NCBI GenBank assembly: GCA_963716745.1
Contig: OY970320.1
Location: 928,001-992,000, forward strand
Length of the DNA: 64,000 bases
DNA from: an uncultured Gemmatimonadaceae bacterium
GTDB taxonomy: Bacteria > Gemmatimonadota > Gemmatimonadetes > Gemmatimonadales > Gemmatimonadaceae
Direction of reading: 5' to 3'
Shown: in pieces, positions 502 through 45,999 of the stretch
How the letters are laid out: every line of letters starts with the position of its first letter
Position numbering within the stretch: the stretch's first letter is position 1
Notes under the pieces: model-generated
The model's database searches: none
The model's input: the letters and a program-made list of their open reading frames with translations, nothing else
What the model was told of the DNA's origin: nothing
Made by a program: the position numbers and the translations under genes

Positions 502-560
502 AGCAATATCATAGTGCTAAAATTGCATTTGACGCACCACGCGCCTGGACCTAGACATTC
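502..560 (+). promoter_or_regulatory. Putative LysR-regulated promoter box A (TTGACG-N17-TAGACA)
   Basis: 502-537 matches the reverse complement of 5667-5702 at 32/36 positions; lies upstream of the permease. Confidence 0.55.
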
Positions 561-604
561 GTCCATCGGCGCGGCGAGCGCCGCCCGTCATCACGAGGAG
601 GGTT

Positions 605-3087
605 ATGGACGCTCTGCTGCAGGACCTGCGCTATGCGATGCGGACGCTGAGCAAGAGCCCCGCGTTCGTGACGATCACCGTGCTGACGCTCGCGCTCGGC
701 ATCGGCGCGAACCTCGCGATCTTCACCGTCGTCAACGCCGTGCTGCTGCAGCCGCTGCCCTTCCGCGAACCCGAGCGCATCGTGCGCGTGTTCGATGATC
801 TGGGCGGCGCGGGAGCCAAGAACGTCGGGATGTCGGTCCCCGAACTGTATGATCTGACCGAACGCTCCGGAGTATTCGAACAGATCAGCGCGACCTTTCC
901 TTCGAGCGGGGCTCTGTCCGGCGGCGGAAGGGTGGAGCGGATCGTGTTGATCGGTACGAGCCCGAACTACTTCGAACTCCTCGGCGCGACGCCGGCACTC
1001 GGACGGGTCTACACCCAGTCCGAGTGGGTGCCGGGCTTCCTGGACGGCGTCGTCATCAGCGACGGCCTCTGGAAGCGCCAATTCGGATCGGATCCGCATA
1101 TCATCGGGCGGCGCGTTCGCATGGACGAGGACCCGTACACCGTCATCGGCGTCATGCCGCCCGACTTTCGCCACCCGGGCAATACGGATGCCGGCGACAT
1201 CGAGATGTGGACGGCAGCCGGCTTCACCGGCGATCCTTGGCCGTCGCCGCCGCGTGCGCGGCGCGCGGCGTTTGCCCGGAGCGTTGGGTCGCTTGAAACC
1301 GGGCATCACGCTCGAACAGGCACAGCGGCGACTCGATGCGTTCACGACTTCGCTGCAGCAGACCTACCCCAATGAATATCCCAAGCAGTTGGGTTGGTCG
1401 CTTCGGCTCGAGCCCGCCCAAAGCAGCCTCACCGGCAATGTGCGACCGACGCTGGTGATCCTGCTCGCCGCCGTGAGTTTCGTGCTCCTGATCGTGTGCG
1501 TCAACGTGGCCAGCTTGCTGATCGCGCGGGCGTCGGCGCAAATGCGTGAGTTCGCCATTCGCCAGGCGCTCGGCGCATCGCGCGGCCAGCTCGTTCGACA
1601 GGTGCTGACCGAGAGCGTGCTCATTTCGCTGGCCGGAGGCACGGCGGCCCTTGCGGTGCTTCTCGTCGCGCAACGATCGCTGCTTACGCTCGATGCCCGC
1701 GGATGTGCCTCGACTCGCCGAGGTGCATGCGGATTGGCGAATGGTGGCGTTCGCGCTGGTGCTGTCGCTCGCGACCGGAGTGTTGGTCGGACTGATGCCG
1801 GCGCTCCACGCATCGGCGATCGATCCCAATCGCGACTTGAGGGACGGCGGACGCACGGGTGGTGGACAGAGCCTGCGCCAGAACCGATCGCGCGCCACGC
1901 TGGTCGTGACGGAGGTCGCGCTATCGGCGGTGTTGCTCATTGGCGCCGGGTTGCTTGTCCGCAGTTTCTCGGCCGCGCTCGGTCAGGATCCCGGTCTCGA
2001 TCCGGAGAGGCTTGTGGCGGGCCAGATCTGGGTGCCCATTCCGAGCGATCCCAAGGCGAATCCATACTGACCGCCGCCGCAGCGCGCCGGGCTTGCCAGG
2101 GAACTGCTCGCACGGATCGCGCTGCTCCCCGGCATGGAGCGAACGGCGATCGGCACGTCGAGCGCTGTCCCGCTCCTGAGCAATCGTGAACAATCCCGTC
2201 GCGTTCTCCATTGCCCGACGAGGTCTCGACGCAGGAGAACGATCACGCCGCGGAGTTCGTCGCCGTGAGCGCAGGGTATTTCGACGTGCTCAGGACGCCG
2301 CTGAAAAAGGGCCGCGTCTTCACCGATCACGATGCGGACTCCAGCGCGAGAGTCGTGGTGGTCAATGAAGCGTTCGTCCGCAGATTCTCACCGCAACGGG
2401 ACGTGGTTGGCCGGCGGATGCGGTTTGTTTGGCGGGGTAGAGGAACAAGAAGCCGAAATCGTCGGCGTGGTCGGGGATGTGCGCAATGACGGACTGGACG
2501 TGGCGCCGCCGCCGCGCGTGTACCAATCCATTCTTCAATATCCCGGCATCAGGCTCGCCGTGTTTCTCCGCACGCGTTCCGATGTGGACGTGAAGGCGAC
2601 CAAGGAAGCCCTCACCGCGACGGTACACAGCATCAATCCGGAAATTCCGGTGTTCGACGTCAGGACCATGGCGGACCTGATGTCGGCTTCGATGGCGCGG
2701 CGCCAGTTCTCACTCTTCTTGATGTCGGTCTTTGCCGTGTCGGCGCTCCTGCTCGCCGCGCTGGGGATTTATGGTGTGATGGCCTTCGTCGTCGGCCAGC
2801 GCGCTCAGGAATTCGGCATCCGGCTGGCCCTGGGTGCGAAGCCGCGGGATATCCTCGGCCTCGCGTTCCGCCCCGGCCTCATTCTCACCGCCACGGGAAC
2901 CATCGTCGGTCTGGGTGCGTCGATCGTCGTGACGCGGCTGATGTCGAGCCTCCTGTTCGGCGTGTCGGCGAGCGACCCGATGACGTTCGCCGTTGTGCCG
3001 GTGCTGCTGGGGATCGTTACGATGGCCGCGTGTTTCATTCCGGCGAGACGCGCCACGCGCGTTTCTCCGATGGAGGTGCTGAAGTAG
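605..3087 (+). CDS. ADOP-type duplicated MacB/FtsX ABC permease (frameshifted)
   Basis: [15 protein letters not shown]...[13 protein letters not shown] start, [35 protein letters not shown] end; pieced from ORFs 605-1375, 1188-2189, 1651-2070, 2211-2489, 2332-3087; GGAG RBS. Confidence 0.9.
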
Positions 3088-5023: not shown

Positions 5024-5548
5024 CTATCGGGTCACGATGGGCAAGTACGCGCGCCACGGCCCGATCGCGTCCCGGTACTGTTTCGCCATCACACGGGCGG
5101 TTTGTGCGATATGTCCCAAGTCGTGCACGACCCAAGTCGCCAACAGCTGCCGGAGCGTGACCGTGCCGAACTCCGGATGCTCTCCATCCAGCGCGAGTTC
5201 TGTGTCCGTCAACCGCCAGGCCGCGAGCGTCGCGAGATTCTCCGCACGCAATCGCCCGAACTCATCGAGGAGGACGGACAGCGATTTGCCCTGACTCTCG
5301 CGGAGCTGTGCGAAACGATCGTACGGCGGAAGGCGGCGGCTCGTACTTTGAGAAAGGATGACCCGGGCGCGCGGGATCCAGTCCGTGCGCTCGCCGTGGA
5401 CGAGATGTCCGACGATGACGTACGGGCTCCACGTTTCGGGCCCTTCCGTCGCGTCGATCCACGCCGCACCCAAGTCGCGCAACATCGCATTCAGCGTCCC
5501 GGGCGTGCGTTCGAGGATCGCGATGCCCTGCGTGATGTCGAAGTCCAT
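5024..5548 (-). CDS. DinB family protein
   Basis: WSPYVIVGHLVHGE...HPEFG...WVVHDLGHIAQ His triad; likely start MDFDI. Confidence 0.88.
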   Translation of the reverse strand: MDFDITQGIAILERTPGTLNAMLRDLGAAWIDATEGPETWSPYVIVGHLVHGERTDWIPRARVILSQSTSRRLPPYDRFAQLRESQGKSLSVLLDEFGRLRAENLATLAAWRLTDTELALDGEHPEFGTVTLRQLLATWVVHDLGHIAQTARVMAKQYRDAIGPWRAYLPIVTR

Positions 5549-5643
5549 TGCTCTCTTCCGTATGATGTTTGACCCCGCGCAAGGAACGCGCTTGCTCGAA
5601 GCCGTGTTCGCTGCGCGTTGCACGTCTCAGTGACGGTGCGAAT

Positions 5644-5702
5644 GAACGTTTAAGCCAAGTGATCACGTGCGTCAACTGCAATCTTTTCACTATGATATTG
5701 CT
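5644..5702 (-). promoter_or_regulatory. Putative LysR-regulated promoter box B (TTGACG-N17-TAAACG)
   Basis: Inverted copy of 502-537, upstream of the DinB-GNAT genes. Confidence 0.55.
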
Positions 5703-5722
5703 CGACTGACGTTACCCCCGGC

Positions 5723-5980
5723 TTAGGCCAGAAACCTATCGGAGGATCGCGACAGCGGAGGGTTCCTTCGCCAGGGTGAGTTCCCGGCCGACCGCACGGC
5801 CAGCTCGTTCATGACGCGGCCGGAGCATTCGCGGATCTCGGCGCCACTCGCGCGGCCGTCCATCCAAGGAATGCGATGGCATTCACCGATTGTGCGGCGC
5901 ATTCTCTGGGGTCGCCCGCATCTCCCACGGTCCATCCGATTCTCGCGGGCAACGACGACGAAGTCGACGATTCGCGGCAA
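5723..5980 (-). pseudogene. Degenerate remnant of the FAD oxidoreductase at 1-422
   Basis: 5803-5863 matches 113-173 at 56/61 nt; GRASGAEIRECSGRVMNE versus GRASGAEIREYFGRVMNE. Confidence 0.6.
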
Positions 5981-6237
5981 GTGTTGACGCTGATCCGCAT
6001 CCTCTTGCGACTACTGCCTAGAACAGCGACGTTCGAGCTGCTGCGGAACTATCGGAGAGCGCCGACATCAAGCCAGAGCATGGGCGCCATGACGGCGGGA
6101 AGGATGGTACTCTGCACCGGCGCTGTTGGAACGTGGCTGGCCCAACGTAGGGTTCGACTTGATATCGGGGAAGGGCCGACTCGACTCACACGTCGAGCAC
6201 CATTCGGTGACTCGGTGAGCCGCACGGCGAGGATATA

Positions 6238-6483
6238 ATGTCGATCACCAGGCACCGCTCTCAAGAGCAAGGAGACTCCCGTGGCGTGGATCGACCAAAT
6301 CTTCGATGCCAAGATTGTGAGAGAAAGAAGGCATTGTGCGGCGGAGCAAGAGGGACGTTCACCGGTTCTCATTGTTTGACGAGCTACTCCTTCAAGTGCA
6401 AGACCGAGGATATCATTCTCATTGAGACCGGACACCAATATGTCATTTTGTGCCACAAGGGGGCTCTTGTTATTCACTGCTAA
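6238..6483 (+). CDS. Small conserved hypothetical protein (frameshifted)
   Basis: Across frames: WIDQIFDAKIV..GIVRRSKRDV..IETGHQYVILCHKGALVIHC*; GAGG RBS before ATG 6238. Confidence 0.5.
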   Translation: MSITRHRSQEQGDSRGVDRPNLRCQDCERKKALCGGARGTFTGSHCLTSYSFKCKTEDIILIETGHQYVILCHKGALVIHC

Positions 6484-6684
6484 CCGTGGCCGGACTTGGA
6501 CAAGCGTTGGTTGCGCGGGTGGAATCGATCATTTGAATTACGCTACAGCGTATCGAGCTGTCACGCGTGGGATGGGACGAGGCGCGGCTCGGCGCAACAG
6601 TAGTCGATTGACGACAATCCCCGCGCAGCTTCTGGCGGGGCCACGCGCACTGGATCGCCACCACATAGCCCATCAGGTACTTCC

Positions 6685-7308
6685 ATTGACATTGCCGAAC
6701 TAGTCAGAGACTTTTCCGCCGCTCTGAAGGCTGTCGATTCGGAGAGGCCTGTGGGCGCGCGAATTCAATTCAAGCCGGGTGCCGGTCCCCTCACGGAAAC
6801 CGAACTGACGAGGTTGATTCTAAGCTACATGAAGTCTATGCAGGGCACGGTGTACTCGGACGCGGGTGAGCGCGCCTACCCGGGAAGTCGCCAGACTTGC
6901 GACATAGTCGTTCCGGGCAGGTGGGCAATAGAGGTCAAGCTAGCGCGCCCGTTTGGAGACAACGGCAAGCCGGCGGAGCGCTGGTCTGAGAACCTACTCT
7001 ACCCGTATGTGGGAAACACAAGCTCAATCGGCGACTGCCTGAAACTTGTCGAGTCACGCTTTCCTGAGCGAAAGGCCGTCCTCGTGATCGGGTACGAGCA
7101 TTCTCCACCACGGATTCCGCTGGAACCTGCCGTGCGAGGATTTGAGTTACTTGCTTCGGATATCGTTGGAATAGCAATCTCTGCTCGAAGCGAAGAGCTC
7201 GTTGTTGGCCTGGTTCACCCTTTCCATCAGCAAGCGCGGGTTTACGGATGGGAGGTCTTGGGCCGCACGATCGCGGCAGCTGACGCGTCCAGGGATTTTG
7301 ACGCTTAG
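6685..7308 (+). CDS. Hypothetical protein with PD-(D/E)XK nuclease-like motif; start uncertain
   Basis: TCDIVVPGRWAIEVK (D...ExK); frame stays open upstream of GTG 6751 (IDIAELVRDFSAALKAVD). Confidence 0.6.
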   Translation: MDIAELVRDFSAALKAVDSERPVGARIQFKPGAGPLTETELTRLILSYMKSMQGTVYSDAGERAYPGSRQTCDIVVPGRWAIEVKLARPFGDNGKPAERWSENLLYPYVGNTSSIGDCLKLVESRFPERKAVLVIGYEHSPPRIPLEPAVRGFELLASDIVGIAISARSEELVVGLVHPFHQQARVYGWEVLGRTIAAADASRDFDA

Positions 7309-7513
7309 TGCCGCGCGCGGGCCTGCCAGGCGCCCGAGAATTTCGGTGGACCGACCTAAACCGCTGTCCTTCTGGCGCCCCGCACCGCGCGCTGCCGCGA
7401 TTTTAAGTGGGCCCCTGCCAGCCGCCGGCGCGCTCTCGCGTCCTCTCCGAGAGCTGAGGGGGCTGCAGGTCAGTCTGTCGCTTGATCTCCATCATGCCAT
7501 CCGCGAGGGATGA

Positions 7514-9061
7514 ATGCCTGACAAGGGTCACAAGCTCAACGAGAGGGTCTGGCGGCTCTTCTCCAAGGCGGGGTTCGACACCAAGCCGAACGCAACCGAC
7601 GCCTCCGAGGAGCAGGTAAGCCTGGGCACCGGCAATCCCCGCACGCTTGACTTGTCGGCAGCAGACTCGGCTCTCGGCGTCAAGATCATCGGCTGGAACA
7701 AGTCGAGAAAGCAATTCAGCGAGTCCATCAGCGTGCACATCCACGACGTGAGCGATCTTCTTATCCCGGCAGCTGCAGATGCTGGAGTGATGATCTCTCT
7801 AGAGAAGGAATTCACCGATAGCGACAAAGTTCTCGGTCGCGCGCGCAAGATAGCGATGTGGAACAAGGCGGACCTAGAGTACTTCGAAGCGCTAGTCGAG
7901 GCAGTTGGCGATCAAGCCAAGTTCGAAATCTTAAACGCGCTTAATGTCCGAACTAGAGAAGAGACGGGTGTGTTCAATGTTCTCGCGATAAAGTTCAATC
8001 AGCCAGCACCCGGATCCGCCGCTGAGTTGTTCATGTTCACAGCCCCTCCAAGAGTCCTTCTGAGAACGTGTGTCGTCTTGAGAAAGGCACAAGGCAGCAA
8101 GTATGCATATCAACGAATTCTTCAGGCGAAGCGACTCGGAAAGATAGCCGCCTTCGTTAGCAGGGCCGACGCGCTTCTTCCGCCGAATATTATCGTCCAC
8201 TTCGGCGACGAAGTTCGGTGGGAGCCGATTGCACATCCGAGTCAGGATCAGTCCGGTCGGAGAATCACTCTCGCCCGCGAACACGACTACGAACTCGGCC
8301 TTCTGGGCATCCCCTTGCGATACGCGTCGCTCGAACTGATCGATGGCCAGCACCGACTATTCGGATTTGCCCACGCCAACGCGGCGGCGCAGGACACGTT
8401 CAACTTAGCCGTACTTGGAATGCGTGCGATAAGGCCCGCTGGCCGAACCGAAACGTTTATCGCAATCAATGACAACGCGAAGCGAGTAGACGCAAATCTC
8501 GTCGCTTATTTGAAGTACGTTGCGGACGAGGCGACTTGTCAGGCGAACAACGAGCTCATGGCCATCAAAGTCGTCGTCGAATTGAATAAGACCAGTCCAT
8601 TCAAGGGAAGGATCAGAATACTGGATTTCGGCTCAGAGAGAATCACGCTCAAAGGATTCGCGGGTTATGACCTCAAGGGCCTTCTCGGCACGAGAGGACT
8701 TCTCCGCAAGTACTACAAGAATGACTCAGCGGAATTCGTTGGTGCACTCCGGATCTACTTTAGCGTCATGAAGACGATCTTCCCGAAGCAGTGGACCGAT
8801 CCAGATCGATACATTGTGTTTACCAAACGAGGAGTATCTGCATTTCTTAAGCTGCTGAGATCGATCCTGAAGAGCGAGAAGGCTCCACTAACGGCTGTCA
8901 TGGCCAATAAGTACCTGCAACCTCTACGCAATGACTGGGCGGACACCCGCTGGGAGACTGCGTCCCTCGCCAGCGGATATGTCGGATCGAAGGGGTGGAA
9001 GGATTTCCACCGAGACCTCGTCAAGATCATCCGCAGGAAGTACAAGAAATTCGAGGCCTAA
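7514..9061 (+). CDS. DGQHR domain protein with REase-like N-terminal domain
   Basis: Intact 515-aa ORF; YQR, PPNII, LELIDGQHRLFGF and FIAIN motifs of the DndB/DGQHR family. Confidence 0.88.
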   Translation: MPDKGHKLNERVWRLFSKAGFDTKPNATDASEEQVSLGTGNPRTLDLSAADSALGVKIIGWNKSRKQFSESISVHIHDVSDLLIPAAADAGVMISLEKEFTDSDKVLGRARKIAMWNKADLEYFEALVEAVGDQAKFEILNALNVRTREETGVFNVLAIKFNQPAPGSAAELFMFTAPPRVLLRTCVVLRKAQGSKYAYQRILQAKRLGKIAAFVSRADALLPPNIIVHFGDEVRWEPIAHPSQDQSGRRITLAREHDYELGLLGIPLRYASLELIDGQHRLFGFAHANAAAQDTFNLAVLGMRAIRPAGRTETFIAINDNAKRVDANLVAYLKYVADEATCQANNELMAIKVVVELNKTSPFKGRIRILDFGSERITLKGFAGYDLKGLLGTRGLLRKYYKNDSAEFVGALRIYFSVMKTIFPKQWTDPDRYIVFTKRGVSAFLKLLRSILKSEKAPLTAVMANKYLQPLRNDWADTRWETASLASGYVGSKGWKDFHRDLVKIIRRKYKKFEA

Positions 9062-9234
9062 CAGGAGCGCGTTGCGCGCTACAAGGGGATCACGCGAAGA
9101 CGTGTGCCCCATTGCGTTCGAGAGGGCGGCGGTAGGTCAGCTGCTCTTCCACCCGATCTGGAGCAGCTCATACCGTAATGCCTCCAATCGCACTTCCGCC
9201 CTCTCGGTTTGCGCCTCTAGATACTCCGACCGAC

Positions 9235-11645
9235 TTAGCGGACACCATTTAGCTTGGGCACGCGAAATCCATCCACAAACTGGCGGAAGACATCTTCCTC
9301 GACGTCCGCCTTGAATCTCTCGATGTTCTGCCTAATACTGCCGACCGGATCATCCTTATCGACAAGAACCTCCGAGTCCTGATAAGCAACCGCCAACATG
9401 TGATAGAGACACTGATCGACCACGACCTCAGCAAGGCGATACTGTGAGGTCCGCTCCGCGTCAATCGAATCGCGAAACGATTTCTCGTCAGTGCCAAATG
9501 CTGCGCGATTGACTGCATGCAGGCTATTGATCGTGATCATGCCGGTGATCCGATCGAACTCGCTGGCATTCTTCGACAAGCCGCCCGGCAGCGCCCGATA
9601 TTGCAGTCCCTTGAAGACACCGCCAAATGGGCTCTTGGTCTCCTCGATCGAAACCAGCGCCTCTGCACGAACATTCACCTTTGGCTTCGGGAAGCAATCC
9701 GCGGTGATATGCGCCTTCTGGCCAAATCCATAGCCGCGATATGAGAGTCCAATGCGACCAACTGTCCCCGGTGGCAACAAATGGTCCTTTGTGAACTTGA
9801 CCTCTAGCTCGTCCTTCTCCACGCCCTTCGCATTGACGAGCTTCACTGTTGAATCACCCTGTGCCCTCCGCACCGAAATGAGAGTGCCAGTTGGCACAAT
9901 TAGCGGATTAACGAGTAGAGTCAGCCCCCCCAATCGATTCGGCGCTGCCTTACTCGCTTTCGGGTGAACTCAAGGCCCGAAGCGGGCGGTTCCGCAATTT
10001 CGGGTGGTATGACGTCGACCACATTCAGGCGCGCCTCTACATTGTTACCGTCAACGTCCTGGCCGAGTGCGAGAATCTCCGCCTGAGAACCAAGCTTGAA
10101 GCCGGCGATTGTGAAGCTGACCGTCAGCAGTCGCTCATTGGAGAGCACAGGCTCGAATACGGTTGAGCTTGGCTCGATACTAACATTGCCATTGTTGCTG
10201 TCCACGATAACCGTGTATTCTGGCTAGTACCCTAGCGCTGTTTGCGAGCAACCGAACGCGACGAGTTTGTCCGACCTTCAGTTGGATCCGTTCGTCCTCG
10301 AAAGCCATGACATTCGGAATGGCGGGACCTACAGAACCGGGGCCGCCTCCGGGCTGTTGTTTCGTGACGTCCTCGAACAGCTCATTCAGCTTCTGCAGCG
10401 CCTTCTTCACCTTCTTCTCTGCAGCATTGGAAAGGGCCTTCGTCGGCTCCGAGCGTCGGTCGATCTCCTTCTTCAGAATGGGTTCAAGCAGCGGCCTAAG
10501 GGTCGCGTCGAGCGCCTTGTAAAAATCGGTCCTAGTGTCGAACCCGTCGCGAGACTCGGTGAGAAGCGCCTCGCCTGCATTCAGGCGCTTCCTAATCACC
10601 TCGCGAACTCCCGTGAGTCGCACTACACCGTACACCTGGTCCAAGTAAGGTGAGCCCTCAAAGCCGAAAAGCGTCTGATCATATACGGTATCGACTTCAT
10701 CAACGACCAAGAGCCCACCCGCACGATCGTCACCAGCATCCGCACTGGGCAGAGTAGTGTCAGCGCGCACAACAATCACTTCCGCGAGAATCTCGCCATA
10801 CTCCTGATACTTCAGCTTGCAGTCGAACCTGCCGATCACCTGACCGCGTGGAAAATTGTATGTGAGATGGTGACGTTGGTCCCCTCCTCCGCGGCTCTGT
10901 TCGAGATTGACATCACAATGCGGATCGGCATTGATCAGGCGGAGCATGTAGAAGCCTGACAGGCGTGCAACAAGGCCTTCGGCATTCGGTACGCGACACT
11001 GCTCATTGAGCAGACACGAGACGTTCGTGCCGTTCTTCGAACCGATACCCCGAGTCCTGCCGCTGTTTTCGCGTTGCAGCGCCAATATCCATTACTTCAT
11101 AAACTGGTTCCTCCTGGCCAGGCCCACCCTCCCATTCAAAGGAGCATATGCTGGCGCGGTTCTCCTTTATGGTGCGCACTTGGCCCTGGTGTGTGTGAAT
11201 ACACGACATTGCCAATTCCTTGGCCAAAAAGACCCCGGGACAGCGTGTCCCTCGCCCGCACCACTCTTCTCCTCACCGTACTTCAATAATCTTCCGCATC
11301 CATCTCACCGGCAGTCATTCCTTCGGCGTGATCAATTACTTGGCACTCACGCTTTTCCAGTGAAGCCGCGGCAGCAGTAGTGCTAACTCGAATTGTGACT
11401 TCTCGGCGGGGTCTGCCCGGAAGCTCCTTGAGGAGGTCGTCGTGAATCACGTGAGTTCCAACCGGAAGGCCGAGTAGCTTCGCGATGATGCCCGTCGATG
11501 AATCCGCCGCGCCGTACATTCTCTTGTACGAGTCGTAGCTGTTGGTAACTGGTTCGGTAATCGTCTTCGCGATGCTCTGTTGGACAGCCTTGTTAAACTG
11601 TCGTTTCCACTTTCTTGTTGCGAGGGTCAACTTGCGCTTCGTCAT
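9235..11645 (-). CDS. GHKL (HATPase_c/MORC-like) ATPase domain protein, about 800 aa (frameshifted)
   Basis: ITEPVTNSYDS (ExxxNxxD), VIDHAEGMT (DxxxG), GLFGQGIG in a shifted frame, NGT motif; pieced from ORFs 11283-11645, 11003-11227, 10180-11085, 9921-10205, 9235-9933. Confidence 0.72.
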
Positions 11646-12357
11646 TCGTATCTCCTACGGTTCGGCGGTGGTAGTCGCGAGGTCAGCGCTTCCTGGAACA
11701 ACGTCGAGAATCGTTCGCGAAGTTCATTAAGAAGTTGACCACATCGTCGTCTCCGACTGAGGCGGCGGTCGTTCTTAGTCGCGCTAAGCGGTGCGTCAGC
11801 GCCTCGGGCGGCGTGTGCGAGTATGCCTCCAGGACATCAAGAGCCTCGAGTGCGTCCGCATTCTCCCAGCCAAGCTGGAATTTTTGCCAAAGCGCTGAGG
11901 TGCGTATTCGCGCAACTCCATCTTCAGCATGCACCGTTCGTTTTACCTTGCCGCCTGGTTCCGCCTGGAGGTCAGATGGCGAGAGCTTAAGATTCACGCT
12001 CGCGTTCGTCCCGAGCTTCCCCATCAACGCGCGCGCCTCTTCTTCTCCTCCGACCGTTAGCTGCCATCCCAGTCGAGTCTTACCGGTGGCCCAATTCCGA
12101 TACTTGGGGCGGAGCTGCAGGAGTGCTCTGTTGACCCGCGTCGCATCTGGGTACTCCGCGAAGCCAACCATTGCAAACCTTCTCGGAAACATTCGAAACA
12201 ATGCCACCGCAATGTTCTCGAACGTTGCCGGTACATCAAGATCAGAGAGCACTTTGATGGCGAACACGGTCAAGCGATTCAGATCGATGGCCGAGTACCG
12301 ATCTGCCTCATAGGGCTTCAGGCCCATGATCGCCGTGGGAGTTGAAGCTTTACTCAC
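11642..12357 (-). CDS. Hypothetical protein, winged-helix-like N-terminal half; start uncertain
   Basis: FENIAVALFRMFP..YPDATRVNRALLQL..WQLTVGG; shifted C-terminus ..NRRRYE* ends in an ATGA overlap with the ATPase start. Confidence 0.6.
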
Positions 12358-12406
12358 TTGAGCGTGGGTTCTGGAATTGTGAGCTCCTTGGTCCAAGGAT
12401 TCCTTG

Positions 12407-13259
12407 TCAATGAGCTGTCGGCGGGTGGCACGTAGATCGGGCGTCCATACGCCCGAAGAGGAAGTTTGCCCGCCGCGGCCTGCCGAGCTCGCGTACGACA
12501 ATCCGGACATACGATGCATGTATGTCAGATCCTATCGCGCGCCGACCTCGCAAAACGGCGGCGGCGATCGTCGTGCCTGAACCCATGTATGGATCACACA
12601 CCGCGTCGCCGCGATCCGTAAGGGCGAGGATCAGGCGATCGGCCAGCTCAAGCGGAAACTGACAAGGGTGATCAGTTTTTTCGGGATGATTGTGCTTGAC
12701 GTTGGGGATTGCCCAAACATTGCCGGGATTCTGACCATTGGGGTTTGATGAGAACTGACCCTTCTTTGGCCCCTTGTAGTGCCTCTTGCCTGGGTATTTT
12801 TGCGGAACACGCACATGCTCGAGATTGAACTTGTAGCGTTTGCTCTTTGTGAACCATGAGATAGTCTCGTACCTTCCCGAGAATCGCTGGTTGCAATGCA
12901 ATCCATGCTCGAAATGCCACACGATTCTATTGCGCATTTCTGAATCCGGAGTCGATGAACTCCCTATAAAGCAGTGAATCAAGAGGGTACACCTGACCCG
13001 AGCGCACATAGTTTCCAACCTGCCAGCATATGCTACCGTTGGGCTTCAGGACGCGCGCGCACTCAGAAATCACAAGCCGCTGGTTCGCCAAGTATGAATT
13101 GATGTCTGTCCTCTCCTCGTAACTCTTGCCGAGGTTGTACGGCGGCGATGTCAGCACCAGCATTACTGATTCGTCGGGTAGTGATCGCAGGAACGCCAGA
13201 CAGTCGCCTGTATGCAGCACGACGTCTGCGTCGCTGCGGTGAGACTTGCTAATCTTCAT
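12407..13259 (-). CDS. Site-specific DNA methyltransferase, beta class, SPPY motif (likely N4-cytosine; frameshifted)
   Basis: GDCL, LTSPPYN, RNRIVWHFEHGLH, HPCQFP, DPYMGSGTT. Confidence 0.92.
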
Positions 13260-14345
13260 TCTCCTCCCCCGGAGCTATTGTGGATCGGGTGCCTATGCGT
13301 TGCATGTGCGCCTGCGTTCCTGAGTTGGTCCAACGCGGACTCGCCACCGCGTGCGATCGCGAACCGAGCGGACCTACCGGTCTTGATGCGGGTAATTAGT
13401 CGCAAGTCTTGCATGCGTCCCAACGCACCAGCTTTCATGGTCTGTACCGTCGCTTCTGACAGGCGGGAAGGAAGGTTTTGTTTTGCGAGTTGATCCAACT
13501 CTTCAACAGACAGTTCACTCTCGAGGAGGCCAGTAAGAATTGCCATCAGGCAAGAACGTTCACGGGGAATTCTCTCCGCGGCGTTATCGAGATACCATCC
13601 GGATCTCGTCGGCCGAGAGCGCCGTACTTAGGTCACCAGCGTCGAGGGCAGGATTAGGCAGCTTGGCAAACGTGAGTCCGCCGGCGGTCAGCCCCACGCG
13701 ATTCTTTTCAGCGACGCCCGCGAGGCCAAGTTCAAACAGAGCTCCGCTCGCTCGCCCCTTCCTGTCGACTCTGCCGAAATAGTGGTCCCCAAATCGTTCT
13801 CTGGCTCTAAAGAGCGGCTCGCGGCTCGGCAGGCCTGTGAGAAGGCTTTCGTCGCCTGGCGGCCTGGCCACTCCGTATCGCGTAGCGATCCACCTGCCCG
13901 CCGCTTCCGCGCGCACGCTCGCGAGATTCTTGGCGGCTTCGAGGTCAGTTGGCCCCATCGCCGACTCTCTGAGTAGTGAGCGCAACGCGATCTTGATCGG
14001 GAACACGCGATTTACAATTCCCCAAAGCCAACCGTGATCAGCCACTCTCATGCTGGCGGCAGCCGATAAGTCCAGCGTTGCTACTGGCTCCCCGTGGAGC
14101 ACGCCAAGATCAGAGAATGAGGTATTCTCGGAAGGCTGATGTGCGAAGACTGATCGGCTCCGCATTGATTCACGATCGCCTGCGGCGAGCGAAGGCCCCT
14201 CCTCGCGCCCAGTCGGCGCCTCCAGCGAGAGCTGATTCTCAATTGCGAGAGTAGCGAACTGGCCCACAGAGGCAAAGCCGCCGGCTTCCACTGCCCGCTG
14301 TACCCTATCGAATAACCCCGACGGGACGTCAATTAGAATTCTCAT
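13256..14345 (-). CDS. Hypothetical regulator-like protein: RHH-like N-terminus, wHTH-like C-terminus (frameshifted)
   Basis: MRILIDVPSGLFDRVQRAVEAGGFASVGQFATLAIENQL (CopG/RHH pattern); GALGRMQDLRLITRIKTG at C-terminus; AGAGG RBS; ATGA overlap with the MTase. Confidence 0.62.
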
Positions 14346-14378
14346 GGCAACGGATCCTCTATGACTGCGACCGGATGC

Positions 14379-14407
14379 ATCATATAATACAGCTGATGTC
14401 TTGTCAA
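14379..14407 (-). promoter_or_regulatory. Sigma70-type promoter TTGACA-N17-TATGAT
   Basis: -35 at 14407-14402, -10 at 14384-14379, upstream of ATG 14345. Confidence 0.75.
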
Positions 14408-14574
14408 TAGCAACCGATGTATCAAATCGATACAACCGTTCCTCGTTCCCCATCGACAGACTCGGCGGCCGTCCAAAGATCCGGTTTGCCATCGGGGGAG
14501 GCTTCTCAGGATGGAGAGTTCTTCCCTCGGAACCTGGCAGCATCAGAGGTACCGCCCACCGACGCGACGGTAAG

Positions 14575-14610
14575 AAAAAAAAGCCCCACCGCGATATCGC
14601 GGCGAGGCTT
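14575..14610 (-). terminator. Intrinsic terminator after tRNA-Pro
   Basis: Hairpin AAGCCTCGCCGCGATATCGCGGTGGGGCTT followed by a T run on the minus strand. Confidence 0.8.
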
Positions 14611-14624
14611 CATCTTCAATTCAA

Positions 14625-14698
14625 TCGGGACGGCGGGATTTGAACCCGCGACCCCCTGAACCCCATTCAGGTGCGCTACCGGGCTGCGCTACGTCCCG
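14625..14698 (-). tRNA. tRNA-Pro(GGG)
   Basis: Cloverleaf CGGGACG...CGTCCCG-A; anticodon arm CCTGA-AT GGG GT-TCAGG; GGTTCAAATCC T arm. Confidence 0.97.
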
Positions 14699-29510: not shown

Positions 29511-29801
29511 CGAGGATCCTCACGAGTCGAGAGTCCAACGGGTGCTGTACCAGGACTGTTACGCTCTGCTAAGGGAAACCCGGCTCCGTGCGATCGTAAA
29601 ACCGCAAGGGGCGGGGTTGGTACCGCGAAATGCGTGTGTAGCGCTGGCATTGGGAACTGCGGCCTCCAGGGAGCTCGCAGTACACAACGCCAACGCTAAC
29701 GCGCCTCTCGCGGCACCAACCCCGCCGTCGGCGGTACCAGCACCGCAGTTCGTGCCCTTCTGCACTGGACTCCCCCCGTCCCCATTCGCACATTTGGGGT
29801 C

Positions 29802-31902
<2,101 letters not shown>

Positions 31903-31906
<4 letters not shown>

Positions 31907-32283
31907 CCGATGGAAAGCGCGTGCTGCTGGTGGAAGACAACGAGATGAATCGCGACATGCTCTCGCGCCGGCTGGCGCGGCGCGGATTCGAGGTGGGCAT
32001 CGCAGTGGACGGGCGCAGCGGCGTGGAGATGACGCTCACCGGCGAGTTCGATGTGGTGCTCATGGACATGAATCTCCCCGAGATCGATGGCTGGGAGGCG
32101 GCGCGCCAGATCCGCGCCGGCGAGAAGGGGCGCCGCGTGGCGATCATCGCGCTCACGGCGCACGCGATGCAGGGCGACCGCGAGAAGGCGCTCGCCGCCG
32201 GCTGCGACGAATACGACACGAAGCCGGTGGACTTCGAGCGCTTGCTCGGCAAGATCGCCGCGGTGCTCGGGAGCGCGGCGTGA
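31903..32283 (+). CDS. Single-domain response regulator (DivK-like)
   Basis: [29 protein letters not shown] overlap. Confidence 0.92.
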
Positions 32284-36834: not shown

Positions 36835-38305
36835 TCAGTCTTCTTGATCCTGGCAGTGACGACCTGGATAGGTGATGGGCCACTGCTGGGCGCCGGCCAT
36901 GCGGATCGCCTCCCAGCGGCGCGCGTTGTACTCGTACCATGCGCCGGGCGCGAGTTCGCAGCGTTTGCTCACGCGCTCTTTGAGCATCGTGGTGAGACTG
37001 TCGGCCAGCACGGGGGGCAGCGACGCGCGCGCAGCGAGGAGCGATGGCATCGCGTCCATCGACAGTCCCGACGCGAGATAGCGCACATCGAGTTTACCGC
37101 TGCTTGCGAAGCGTGCGACGTTCTCGCGCACGACAAAGGCGCCGGTGTTCCAGTAGATGAGCGCCGCGAGCGCGACGGCGCCCACCACCGCGCCGCGACG
37201 GGCGAGGCGGCGCGCGTCGAGGCCGCGCGCGATCTCCCACACCGTGAGCGCGAGCGCGATCCACACGCACACCATGAACGTCTGCGCCCAGAGACGCGGC
37301 ATGGTGTAGCCGTAGGCCGATTCGTAGAGCGCGATGCGACGGAACGCGGACAGGACCACGAACGCGGTGAGCGCGAGGAGCGCGAGACTCAGCGCGCGCG
37401 CGGCGCGTTCCTGCCCCGCTCCGCCGCGCGCAGCGCGTCGTCTCGAGCACCACGATGAGCACCGTCACGATCGTCGCCGCTGTCGTCAGCTCGGCGAAGC
37501 CGCTATGCACCCACTCGGCGTACGTGACACCCGAGCCCGTGACGGCCGCGGGATTCCCGAACATTACCGGCAGCTGCAACACGAAGAAGGCGGCGAAGAG
37601 CGCGGTGACCGCGCCGAGCACGATGAGCCGCTCGGTGATGGATGCGCGCGCGAGCGGCACGAAGGCGGGGTCGCCCGAGGTGACGGCTTCGCGCGACGCG
37701 AGGCCGAACGCGCCGAGTGAGAGCACACCGATCCCGGCGGCGAAGATGAGGCGCGGGATGAAGGTGAGCTCGCGGATGGCGTCGACGATCGCACCACCCC
37801 AGCTCGAGAGGTGCGGATCCGCGGCGGCCAGCAGCAGCCAGAGGAGGATGATCACCGGCACCGCGAGCATCGTGCCGCGCAGCACCGGCATGCTGCGCTC
37901 CGCGTTCGCGGATTCGGCGAGTTCGCCGACTTGGTCCCAGGATTCGTGCGCGGTTTCGAACGCGCCCACGAGTGGAGCGCTCGCAATGAAGATGGCGCCG
38001 GCGCTCGCGGCCGGCACGCCGGCGGCGATGCGCGATGCGTAGGCGAAGAGCAGTACGTTCGCGACGACGATGAAGAAGTGGAGCGCTGGGCTGCTCGTGA
38101 TCGTGGCGCCCGCCGAGATCACCACGGCGAGCGCGAGCGGCACCGCGATGTCGCGCACGGCGGCGGGGCGCGTCGCGAGCGTGTAGTAGCAGAGTGCGAG
38201 CGCGGCGGGCGCGGTCCAGAGGAGCCAATTGAGGCCCGGTTCGGCATCGAACTCGATCGTGGCGGCGATCAGGGAGAGAACGAGAGCGGCGATCCAGATG
38301 CTCAT
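36835..38305 (-). CDS. DUF4153/DUF4173-type membrane protein (frameshifted)
   Basis: PGLNW, LLAAADP, TYAEWVHSGFAEL, LYESAYGYTMPR, LDVRYL..LSMDA. Confidence 0.8.
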
Positions 38306-38338
38306 GTGAACCCCAGATTTAGACGTTAGACCTAGACG

Positions 38339-44526: not shown

Positions 44527-44607
44527 TTTTCCTGCCGGGCATGAGAACGGGCCCCGGTCCAGACGGACCGCGACCCGGTGATCGACAGCACTAGGGTATC
44601 ACATAAG

Positions 44608-44680
<73 letters not shown>

Positions 44681-44763
44681 GTTCACTACAGGTACGCGTT
44701 GCTCCTAGAAACTACTGGCTGGCGGTGCGGCAGGCTACTCCCTTGCTTCGGAAGGCGCGGCAA

Positions 44764-44856
44764 GCGGGAAGCGGGAAGCGCCGCGGGACGCGGGAAGGGC
44801 GCGGAGGCTCACGCGCGTCCCGCACATCGCGGCGCTTCCCGCTTCCCGCGTCCCGC
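44764..44856. repeat. GCGGGAA-unit palindrome, second copy
   Basis: Similar to 34167-34282. Confidence 0.88.
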
Positions 44857-44860
44857 GTAG

Positions 44861-45142
44861 TTATTTCTTCGCCGGCGGATCGACCTTGATGTCCTTCGCG
44901 CCGAGGGTGGCGTCTTGCACGAGCTTGACGCCGCAGGCTTCGAGTGTATCGCGGGCCTCCTGCATCTGCGACGGGAGCTTGAGCTCGGCGTTGTCGGGCG
45001 AGACGCGAACGGTGGAACCCTTCGCGATCAGGCGGTCCTCGGCGCGCTCCAGCAGGTCGTCGATGTTCGTGATGGGAGCGGGCGCGGCGGGCGGCTTAGG
45101 CGGCTGCGGGGCGGTCATGGTGGCTCCTGGTTGGGCTGCCAT
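44861..45142 (-). CDS. Small hypothetical protein
   Basis: 93-aa ORF; alternative start MTAP at 45119 follows an AGGAG RBS. Confidence 0.6.
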   Translation of the reverse strand: MAAQPGATMTAPQPPKPPAAPAPITNIDDLLERAEDRLIAKGSTVRVSPDNAELKLPSQMQEARDTLEACGVKLVQDATLGAKDIKVDPPAKK

Positions 45143-45180
45143 AAGTGACGCGGCTCGCGCGGGAGTAGCAACCCGGAACG

Positions 45181-45208
45181 AAAACGGCCCCGGATCACGG
45201 GGCCGTCT
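45181..45208 (-). terminator. Terminator of the tRNA cluster
   Basis: ACGGCCCCG-TGATC-CGGGGCCGT followed by T run. Confidence 0.8.
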
Positions 45209-45211
45209 GAG

Positions 45212-45283
45212 AGCCAGCGGTCAGGATTGAACTGACGACCGCTCGATTACGAATCGAGTGCTCTACCACTGAGCTACGCTGGC
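45212..45283 (-). tRNA. tRNA-Thr(CGT)
   Basis: CTCGA-TT CGT AA-TCGAG. Confidence 0.96.
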
Positions 45284-45312
45284 GATCGTCGAAGGTACTG
45301 CGAGTTGCTGCA

Positions 45313-45394
45313 TGCCCTGGCGCGGACTCGAACCGCGACGCCTTACGGCACCACCCCCTCAAGATGGCGTGTCTACCAATTTCACCACCAGGGC
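45313..45394 (-). tRNA. tRNA-Leu(GAG)
   Basis: CCATC-TT GAG GG-GGTGG, long variable arm. Confidence 0.96.
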
Positions 45395-45445
45395 GCTGCT
45401 GACCTTAAGTCGAGATGAGGTCTAACGTCCAACGACCAACGACTA

Positions 45446-45519
45446 CGGGGCTGACGGGGATCGAACCCGCGACCTCCGGTGTGACAGACCGGCACTCTAA
45501 CCAGCTGAGCTACAGCCCC
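45446..45519 (-). tRNA. tRNA-Asp(GTC)
   Basis: CCGGT-CT GTC AC-ACCGG. Confidence 0.97.
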
Positions 45520-45543
45520 AAATACATCTCTATCGTCCCCTAG

Positions 45544-45615
45544 TAGCCCCAAGGGGAGTCGAACCCCTCTCTGCACCTTGAAAGGGTGCCGTCCTAACCG
45601 ATAGACGATGGGGCC
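45544..45615 (-). tRNA. tRNA-Glu(TTC)
   Basis: GCACC-CT TTC AA-GGTGC. Confidence 0.96.
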
Positions 45616-45702
45616 GTGCAACAGCAGAGGCGCGTCTAGCGTGTGGCGCTACTGAACTGCGGCGTTAGACGTTGGACCATCCTGCAAGGGAAAGTTTCCA
45701 CA

Positions 45703-45775
45703 TAGCGGTAACGGGATTCGAACCCGTGTTTAAGCCTTGAGAGGGCTCCGTCCTAGTCCCCTAGACGATACCGCC
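45703..45775 (-). tRNA. tRNA-Glu(CTC)
   Basis: GAGCC-CT CTC AA-GGCTT. Confidence 0.95.
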
Positions 45776-45808
45776 AGTCGACTGCTCGAGAATCATTTCA
45801 AAAAGCAA

Positions 45809-45881
45809 CAGGCCCGGAGGGACTTGAACCCCCAACCGCTGGTTTTGGAGACCAGTGCTCTACCAGTTGAGCTACGGACCT
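45809..45881 (-). tRNA. tRNA-Trp(CCA)
   Basis: CTGGT-CT CCA AA-ACCAG. Confidence 0.96.
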
Positions 45882-45924
45882 AACGACCGCGACGGCCTCG
45901 GATCCTCCGCTCCTCCCCCCCCAG

Positions 45925-45999
45925 GGTGACCGAGGGGAATTGAACCCCCAACCCCCGGAGCCACAGTCCGGTGCTCTAACCAATTGAGCTACGGTCACC
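45925..45999 (-). tRNA. tRNA-His(GTG)
   Basis: CCGGA-CT GTG GC-TCCGG; encoded G-1 and C discriminator. Confidence 0.96.

Follow-up and report, generated by a model that had tools for sequence, protein, structure and literature searches.

We analysed 64,000 nucleotides of contig OY970320.1 (positions 928,001 to 992,000 of the forward strand; assembly GCA_963716745.1, from an uncultured Gemmatimonadaceae bacterium), a stretch referred to below as the window. A low-GC island in it holds four minus-strand genes in the order geneA, DNA methylase, geneB and GHKL ATPase (geneA and geneB being our working names), which converge on two plus-strand genes encoding a DGQHR protein and a PD-(D/E)xK-like protein. 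A first-pass annotation of this DNA had proposed that all of these genes form a single undescribed defence system. The four minus-strand genes are indeed a conserved unit, and we propose that their operon is probably an unnamed, widespread anti-virus module in which geneB and the ATPase would occupy the place of the restriction enzyme of a restriction–modification (R-M) system. The PD-(D/E)xK-like gene lies outside this unit, and the DGQHR gene belongs to a different, methylase-linked module. The features of the region, in window coordinates, are as follows.

5027–5626: DinB-family gene (Pfam DinB_2), bordering the island
~5630–14620: low-GC island, between the DinB-family gene and tRNA-Pro, delimited by its GC profile
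6685/6751–7308, plus strand: PD-(D/E)xK-like protein of ~200 amino acids (aa), or 185 aa from the GTG at 6751; invariant D..ExK, alignment running from 6700 without a frameshift
7514–9061, plus strand: DGQHR protein, 515 aa, with an N-terminal domain of ~155 aa and a ParB/Srx-like DGQHR domain; intact
9235–11645, minus strand: GHKL ATPase, ~800 aa, assigned from its alignment to the relative P0001, its motifs and HATPase_c_3 matches in relatives
11642–12357, minus strand: geneB, ~235 aa, with a winged-helix domain and a C-terminal helical domain in its structure model
12354–13259, minus strand: beta-class N6/N4 DNA methylase of M.BstYI type with an SPPY motif, assigned from PF01555 and alignment to the methylases of loci L006 and L004
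13256–14345, minus strand: geneA, ~350 aa, with an RHH-like N-terminus (by eye), a conserved middle and a winged-helix-like C-terminus
14407–14379, minus strand: sigma-70-like promoter, TTGACA-17-TATGAT
14611–14580: terminator-like hairpin after tRNA-Pro(GGG), from a terminator scan
14625–14698, minus strand: tRNA-Pro(GGG), found by ARAGORN

The island is foreign DNA. Its GC content is 0.535–0.568 over 7501–13500, against 0.62–0.69 on either flank in 1-kb windows, which confirms the AT-rich island beside tRNA-Pro that the first-pass annotation had described. The one near-consensus promoter that it placed before the four minus-strand genes matches at 11 of 12 positions and is the top-scoring of six promoter-like sites in the region, shuffles of which contain 2.9 ± 1.7 such sites. 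Each joint of the operon is a 4-base overlap: ATGA at 13259–13256, GTGA at 12357–12354 and ATGA at 11645–11642. Both ATGA overlaps had been noted before, and the second is seen once the geneB frame is traced across its frameshift.

Reading these genes depends on frame repair, which we carried out with a custom protein-to-DNA aligner that allows frame changes, using intact relatives as references. Over its 5.1 kb the operon has 10–11 frameshifts (~2 per kb) and no in-frame stop codon. One frameshift lies in geneA near 13604–13610, two in the methylase (12938 and 12499–12505), one in geneB (11727) and six or seven in the ATPase (near 11294, 11238, 11186, 11053, 10218 and 9966); both plus-strand genes are free of them. 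The frameshift in geneA splits it into open reading frames (ORFs) at 14345–13584 and 13546–13256, which had been listed as a separate RHH ORF and 96-aa ORF. One-piece homologues of 335–383 aa in five loci (L002, L003, L004, L006 and L014) span both pieces, and the earlier gene list thus stands for the composition of the operon except that these two entries are one gene of ~350 aa.

Twenty-three full-length ATPase relatives, collected by a word-indexed search and turned into a profile, led to 14 loci from Gemmatimonadota, Armatimonadota, Acidobacteriota, Nitrospirota, Syntrophobacteraceae, Saccharibacteria, Thermoleophilia and the archaeal Thermoplasmata. In all 14, the gene immediately upstream of the ATPase is a geneB homologue, and an N6/N4 methylase is adjacent in 11, the exceptions being L009, L013 and L014, the last on a short contig. 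The co-occurrence of the minus-strand genes assumed in the first-pass annotation therefore holds, and geneB is an obligate partner of the ATPase. Ten further geneB–ATPase loci appeared in samples drawn from methylases (L071, L074, L081, L100, L135 and L146–L150). GeneA itself is present in five of the 14 loci, and a conserved protein of ~75 aa holds its upstream slot in six others. Both families are large, with geneB represented by 965 cluster representatives at E ≤ 0.001 and the ATPase by many unnamed Atlas clusters at 0.98–0.99. A search of viral contigs with the A1 profile found no relative, and a search of plasmids with P0001 found no match.

The neighbourhoods of the 14 loci point in part to defence. 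Strong PADLOC matches stand beside five of them, namely PDC-S41; PD-Lambda-2_B; a CBASS cyclase with a 2TM effector; PDC-S05 with SoFic; and a methyl-directed REase. The Saccharibacteria-type loci L009 (10001–12802) and L013 (10001–12442) encode ATPase variants with additional C-terminal helix–turn–helix (HTH) domains, which in L009 are Sigma70_r4 and DnaA_C; both loci retain geneB and the small protein, followed in L009 by the CBASS-like cyclase and 2TM effector. In line with the first-pass annotation, which did not recognise the combination as a named system, neither PADLOC (PADLOC-DB v2.0.0) nor NCBIfam matched the ATPase, geneA, geneB or the ~75-aa protein, in tests of the PADLOC models that took in the ATPase pieces, five intact ATPase relatives and intact versions of geneA, geneB and the small protein.

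The strongest argument for a restriction-like role comes from the partners of the methylases. The methylase of the window belongs to a short family (~310 aa), from which we sampled 80 of 589 metagenomic relatives. Directly downstream of the methylase in 42 of these 80 loci is a member of a ~203-aa family that proved to be BstYI, matching PDB 1sdo over its full length at E 6.8e-72. By contrast with these loci, neither the window nor the rest of the genome has a BstYI-like gene. The five short-type relatives closest to the window methylase are all ATPase-linked, and seven ATPase-linked methylases form one group among the BstYI-linked ones (SH-aLRT 92; quick tree with a midpoint root). Hence in one methylase clade geneB and the ATPase take the place of the BstYI nuclease, which gives comparative backing to the earlier suggestion that an ATPase and a DNA-binding subunit replace a restriction enzyme. 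In the same quick, midpoint-rooted tree, a different BstYI-linked clade contains the L065 methylase, whose downstream neighbour is a relative of the 515-residue DGQHR protein.

The other ATPase loci are served by a second methylase family, longer (412–485 aa) and marked by a conserved C-terminal extension, of which we sampled 80 of 102 genomic loci. Fifty-four of these have a DGQHR ORF (directly downstream on the same strand in 50), all 56 such ORFs bearing the literal motif, and three more have a ~592-aa ORF with the literal motif. The geneB–ATPase module stands beside the long methylase in 11 of the 80. Elsewhere the long methylase is followed by other GHKL ATPases of ~500–560 aa (HATPase_c_3 at 68–70 bits), each accompanied by a further gene of ~290–320 aa (L078 8286–9962, L094 8323–9834 and L102 4701–6359), or by NOV_C (DUF3883) nucleases (L101 3698–4543 and L133 2649–3503). 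The L078 ATPase matches PADLOC REase_II models; geneA, geneB and the ATPase of our operon match no REase model. Because two unrelated methylase families each swap a nuclease or DGQHR partner for the geneB–ATPase pair, we argue that the pair acts as the restriction half of the module.

The predicted folds of the two proteins are compatible with a DNA-binding subunit and an ATP-driven one. The geneB model, built from 87 sequences with a predicted local distance difference test (pLDDT) score of 90.3, fits a winged-helix fold over residues 25–149 (Z 11.2 and a root-mean-square deviation of 1.9 Å over 83 residues to 2qvo_A in VIA), with many MarR, DtxR and PadR chains following at Z 8–10 in VIA; the C-terminal helical domain is unmatched. 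Its top Foldseek match, the kleisin MukF, is non-significant (E 0.036, probability 0.75). Judged by its motifs, the ATPase is a member of the GHKL (Bergerat-fold) superfamily, with E31, N35, D104/D105, G108/G109 and RGLFGQG invariant or nearly so in alignments of 21 and 27 sequences. HATPase_c_3 was matched by 15 of 21 relatives at E ≤ 0.01, the best at 27.1 bits, and two of the five tested passed the 25-bit cutoff; a PDB profile search gave nothing significant, its best match being the HSP90 N-domain at E 0.84. An N-terminal Bergerat-type ATPase domain is followed by a conserved middle (TESRDGF), a Gly-rich linker, two Ig-like domains and a small beta/helical end domain. The C-terminal half, modelled at pLDDT 82.8, found only Ig-like, PapD-like or Big_2-like matches at Z ~10 with Foldseek and VIA. 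An alignment with P0001 spans the entire window ATPase (815 of 819 residues) at 72% identity. Predicting a complex of geneB with parts of the ATPase (N-terminal 1–430 and C-terminal 1–342) gave a score of 0.01 (mark 0.32), which is evidence neither way. A His-Me-finger nuclease was considered at VNxxHPxNRxxFG, in a predicted beta-beta-alpha segment of the last ATPase domain, and was rejected on finding the His replaced in three of 27 sequences.

The two pieces of the methylase match PF01555 at 135.8 and 46.2 bits, making it the only PF01555 match in the genome, and it matches PADLOC MTase_II at 9e-52 and PDB profiles that include M.RsrI at 3.7e-41; on the PF01555 and MTase_II matches, the operon has the cognate methylase of a type II R-M system. 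A weak PADLOC mad2 match of its N-terminal piece (3.1e-5) is the sole match of the MADS, BREX, Mza or Tiamat type in the operon. SPPY motifs go with N4-cytosine methylation, which suggests this activity for the window methylase, and its specificity is probably BstYI-like. As a hint of that site, avoidance of RGATCY in the genome was uninformative (observed/expected 0.94 overall, 0.64 for AGATCT alone and 1.01–1.02 for the other RGATCY words, maximal-order Markov). In the same genome, CTAG stands at 0.48 of its maximal-order Markov expectation. GeneA has no Pfam or PADLOC family; its C-terminus gives weak matches to PaaX (E 0.004) and DUF4194 (E 0.0053), the latter a non-significant hint.

Methylation-guarded exclusion can work without an identified nuclease, as in BREX, and a comparable scheme can be drawn for this operon. 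The methylase would mark host DNA at a BstYI-like site, and the winged-helix protein geneB could form with the ATPase an ATP-dependent complex that recognises unmarked incoming DNA. Like other GHKL proteins, the ATPase probably dimerises on ATP, and its Ig-like domains and end domain may serve assembly. GeneA, with its RHH-like N-terminus, or the small protein that holds its slot elsewhere, would most likely time expression in the manner of type II controller proteins. For the step that disables the DNA, the likeliest options would be cutting by a nuclease, cryptic or recruited, and ATP-driven trapping that leaves the DNA uncut.

The DGQHR protein of the window (DGQHR-515 below) has a different set of companions. 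It bears the literal DGQHR motif at 8342–8356 and matches TIGR03187 at 120.1 bits against a cutoff of 58.85, as the sole match to this family in the genome. Matches to more specific families remain below the level of DndB or DpdB (TIGR04172, 68.6 against 450; NF041060, 63.8 against 300; Pfam DndB, 24.8 against 29.1), and a PDB profile search with the protein gave nothing significant. Its N-terminal domain possibly has a restriction-endonuclease fold, as sub-threshold matches to Mrr_cat (E 0.094) and Tox-REase-7 (E 0.022), each in one of five sequences, and Atlas leads of 0.78–0.79, under 0.9, would suggest. Each of its four close relatives lies directly downstream of an N6/N4 methylase, and no remnant of a long-type methylase or of BstYI is found near the window gene. 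Beside the geneB–ATPase module, a DGQHR gene occurs only in the window and in L003, one of the 14 loci, where it belongs to a shorter subfamily with 24% identity.

These companions define a module in their own right. A long N6/N4 methylase (412–485 aa) followed directly by a DGQHR protein of 515–657 aa recurs among loci L064–L067 and L072–L145, in 54–57 of the 80 sampled long-methylase loci, including cultured Pseudomonas citronellolis, Mucilaginibacter, Pedobacter, Bacteroides neonati, Alistipes and Parabacteroides, and also Paenibacillus. Examples are L093 (7001–10013), L091, L089 and L098, and PADLOC gives the module a weak DpdB match only. The pair seems to be an as yet unnamed R-M-like system whose effector is of the ParB/Srx type.

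The PD-(D/E)xK-like gene, which the first-pass annotation had counted as the nuclease-like part of the system, does not belong there. Counted from the GTG at 6751, its residues D51, E61 and K63 do not vary among 21 aligned relatives, so that the D..ExK motif seen earlier is well founded, as is the DGQHR motif of its plus-strand neighbour. Its conserved N-terminus reaches ~6685–6700, where there is no ATG, GTG or TTG start and the nearest candidate is an ATT at 6685. At least 508 relatives, 50–70% identical, are spread across many phyla, and the protein has no Pfam, PADLOC, NCBIfam or PDB profile match. The gene is present in none of the 14 ATPase loci, 80 long-methylase loci or four DGQHR loci. 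Conversely, 38 loci of its own family (L026–L063) share no neighbour, no cluster occurring in more than five of them, and the 66 of 143 neighbouring ORFs that were scanned include no DGQHR gene and no gene of the module; the contexts include SelA, SRP54, luciferase-like genes, a type I R subunit, an integrase and a transposase. It is an unlinked solo gene outside both modules. At a distance from the island, eight minus-strand tRNA genes (Gly, Thr, Leu, Asp, Glu, Glu, Trp and His) are clustered at 44607–45998.

With moderate confidence in the explanation as a whole, we therefore read the island as holding three separate defence-type units: an R-M-like operon with geneB and the ATPase in the place of the restriction enzyme; DGQHR-515, the effector half of a separate two-gene methylase–DGQHR module, here without its own methylase; and the solo PD-(D/E)xK-like gene. 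One alternative is that the operon is a decaying remnant whose frameshifts are real, the dead cargo of an old island. The operon carries far more frameshifts per kilobase than most of the window, which includes uninterrupted ORFs of 1186, 932 and 877 aa, and neither an integrase nor an att repeat is left: no integrase was found in the island, Pfam matched none of the ORFs within 5723–6703 and 7202–7513, and a repeat search for att sites returned short, weak pairs with no convincing repeat, the pairing of 6764–6785 with the tRNA 3′ end (17 of 22 matching) being judged chance. Yet the essential gene rpoC (genome contig 2764247–2768286) is in at least seven frame pieces, with at least six frame changes over 4 kb, next to an unbroken rpoB, and other window genes are split as well (a MacB-type permease at 533–3084, a hybrid histidine kinase at 29700–32280 and a DUF4153 gene at 36838–38338). 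Because clumped frameshifts affect rpoC and ordinary genes alike, clumped indels are a property of this assembly, whose completeness is just 89.8% despite a single closed contig. Given that rpoC is as densely broken as the operon and that the operon has no nonsense codon, the island frameshifts are very probably assembly artefacts. The cell therefore probably carries an intact operon, and the frame repair made in the first-pass annotation was warranted. The full-length identity of the ATPase to an intact relative and the preservation of every 4-base overlap likewise speak against decay, which we consider very unlikely. A more plausible alternative, though still a doubtful one, resembles the proposal of the first-pass annotation: a composite system in which the operon's single methylase guards both geneB–ATPase and DGQHR-515, whose N-terminal domain would supply the nuclease. 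DGQHR relatives stand beside N6/N4 methylases in four of four cases, and in 54–57 of 80 when counted from the methylase side; the window DGQHR gene is intact and lacks its own methylase; in L065 a DGQHR-515 protein accompanies a methylase of the short type to which the window's belongs; each of the two methylase families serves both effectors; and the L003 DGQHR gene likewise converges on the module's methylase. Since the genome has no PF01555 gene other than the operon methylase, DGQHR-515 may borrow this enzyme, a dependence that we regard as possible though less likely than not. However, both effectors occur together in none of the 80 long-methylase loci or four DGQHR loci, the single DGQHR gene among the 14 ATPase loci is of the different, shorter subfamily, the nuclease call relies on sub-threshold matches, and the PD-(D/E)xK-like gene is clearly unlinked.

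Two further alternatives concern what the operon does. The methylase, winged-helix protein and GHKL ATPase could constitute an epigenetic or regulatory device rather than a defence, for example for methylation-dependent gene control or mobile-element maintenance. Such a role would accord with the absence of a detected nuclease, with DNA-binding domains typical of regulators in geneA, geneB and some ATPases (Sigma70_r4 and DnaA_C HTH in L009), and with the nine of 14 loci that have no strong defence neighbours. We judge it unlikely, however, given that beside orthologous methylases it is BstYI, a true restriction enzyme, whose place the module takes; that the long-type methylase family is common to DGQHR proteins, other GHKL ATPases and NOV_C nucleases; that the patchy spread over phyla, in bacteria and archaea, is typical of mobile defence genes; and that defence genes neighbour five of the 14 loci. 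About as improbable is a nuclease-free restriction device of geneB and the ATPase, in which winged-helix partners load an ATP-closed GHKL clamp on unmethylated DNA, which the clamp traps or compacts to block replication. Such a device would amount to MORC-type silencing in a prokaryotic form, with an SMC-like architecture on a GHKL motor and with the same mark also controlling the DGQHR protein of the island. If it were true, the weak likenesses of geneB to MukF and of geneA to DUF4194, which we take to be a MukE/JetB-like family, would reflect that architecture. Several points weigh against the R-M-like explanation that we prefer. Searches of geneA, geneB and the ATPase by Pfam, PADLOC, NCBIfam or fold, in which the last ATPase domain (model residues 236–348) was barely tested, identified no domain of a nuclease or other effector, which makes the step that kills or blocks a guess. 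We found no experiment on any member of the geneB–ATPase family. L009 and L013, both full loci, have geneB–ATPase without a methylase within 7 kb, so methylation guarding is not universal, and a strong PADLOC neighbour is missing in nine of the 14 loci. The methylase tree comes from a quick search and is rooted at its midpoint; the window methylase piece is equally close to BstYI-linked and ATPase-linked members (65–70% identical to both, over 147–154 aa in the BstYI-linked case). The artefact verdict on the operon's frameshifts is by analogy with rpoC alone, and the comparison with MORC proteins below covers the GHKL domain and the neighbourhood rather than the S5/transducer fold that directly follows the GHKL domain in MORC-like ATPases.

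Associations of GHKL ATPases with R-M genes have precedents. MORC and paraMORC ATPases were predicted in R-M operons in 2008 (Iyer, Abhiman and Aravind; PMC2292703), a minority of which are reported to have only methylases or nucleases and no helicase. As described there, those operons share with ours a GHKL ATPase beside DNA methylases and a mobile character, and DNA manipulation or looping was proposed instead of, or along with, a restriction nuclease. In contrast, our ATPase is barely caught by HATPase_c_3 (27.1 bits), has no PDB relative by profile and has an obligate winged-helix partner; its C-terminal half consists of two Ig-like domains and an end domain, rather than a RecB-like nuclease, TIR or HxH domain. 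The neighbourhood also differs from the helicase- and nuclease-bearing one of MORC and paraMORC genes, with a helicase only in L002 (one of 14 loci; SLFN-g3/PDC-S41) and no conserved nuclease. A second precedent is the pairing of Response_reg_2 with HEF_HK (HATPase_c_3) beside type II R-M systems, which are reported to have mainly C5-cytosine methylases (Bellieny-Rabelo et al. 2021; PMC8011034). There too, a small partner and a GHKL-type ATPase are tightly linked to each other and to R-M methylases; in our operon, by contrast, the partner is a winged-helix protein rather than a receiver-like one, the methylases are of the beta-class N6/N4 type, and none of geneA, geneB and the ATPase has a match to PF19191 or PF19192. 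Three features set the family apart from both precedents: the Ig-like C-terminal half, the partner with a winged helix, and the absence of both helicase and nuclease.

Other known systems resemble parts of the locus. The BstYI type II R-M system (PDB 1sdo) has methylases 65–70% identical to that of the window over ~150 aa, and differs from the operon in its nuclease, whose place geneB and the ATPase take. Proteins of the ParB/Srx superfamily are often fused to nucleases and linked to DNA-modification systems (PMC3632139 and PMC4619093), and the window DGQHR gene shares the DGQHR domain of this superfamily with DndB, DpdB and GmrS-type proteins; unlike DndB and DpdB, it has no dnd or dpd genes nearby, and the partner of its relatives is an N6/N4 methylase. 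Tiamat and other GHL ATPases act in anti-phage defence, sometimes beside methylases, according to a preprint (bioRxiv 10.64898/2026.09.30.754977). The operon differs from Tiamat and BREX in matching no PADLOC model of either and in having no PD-(D/E)xK C-terminus, helicase or PglZ. A literature search, with subscription journals and supplements beyond its reach, found no description of this gene set or of the methylase–DGQHR pair, and we found no experimental work on GHKL ATPases of R-M operons.

The analysis has implications at several levels. Every gene call in this genome needs frame-aware checking. The geneB–ATPase family is large, occurs in bacteria and archaea, and is missed by PADLOC and NCBIfam, and methylase–DGQHR is a second, very common and apparently unnamed two-gene module. 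More broadly, orthologous methylases that stand beside the structurally solved BstYI, a winged-helix protein with a GHKL ATPase, or a DGQHR protein amount to a natural experiment, and this exchange of partners makes it testable whether a GHKL ATPase with no recognisable nuclease can restrict unmethylated DNA.

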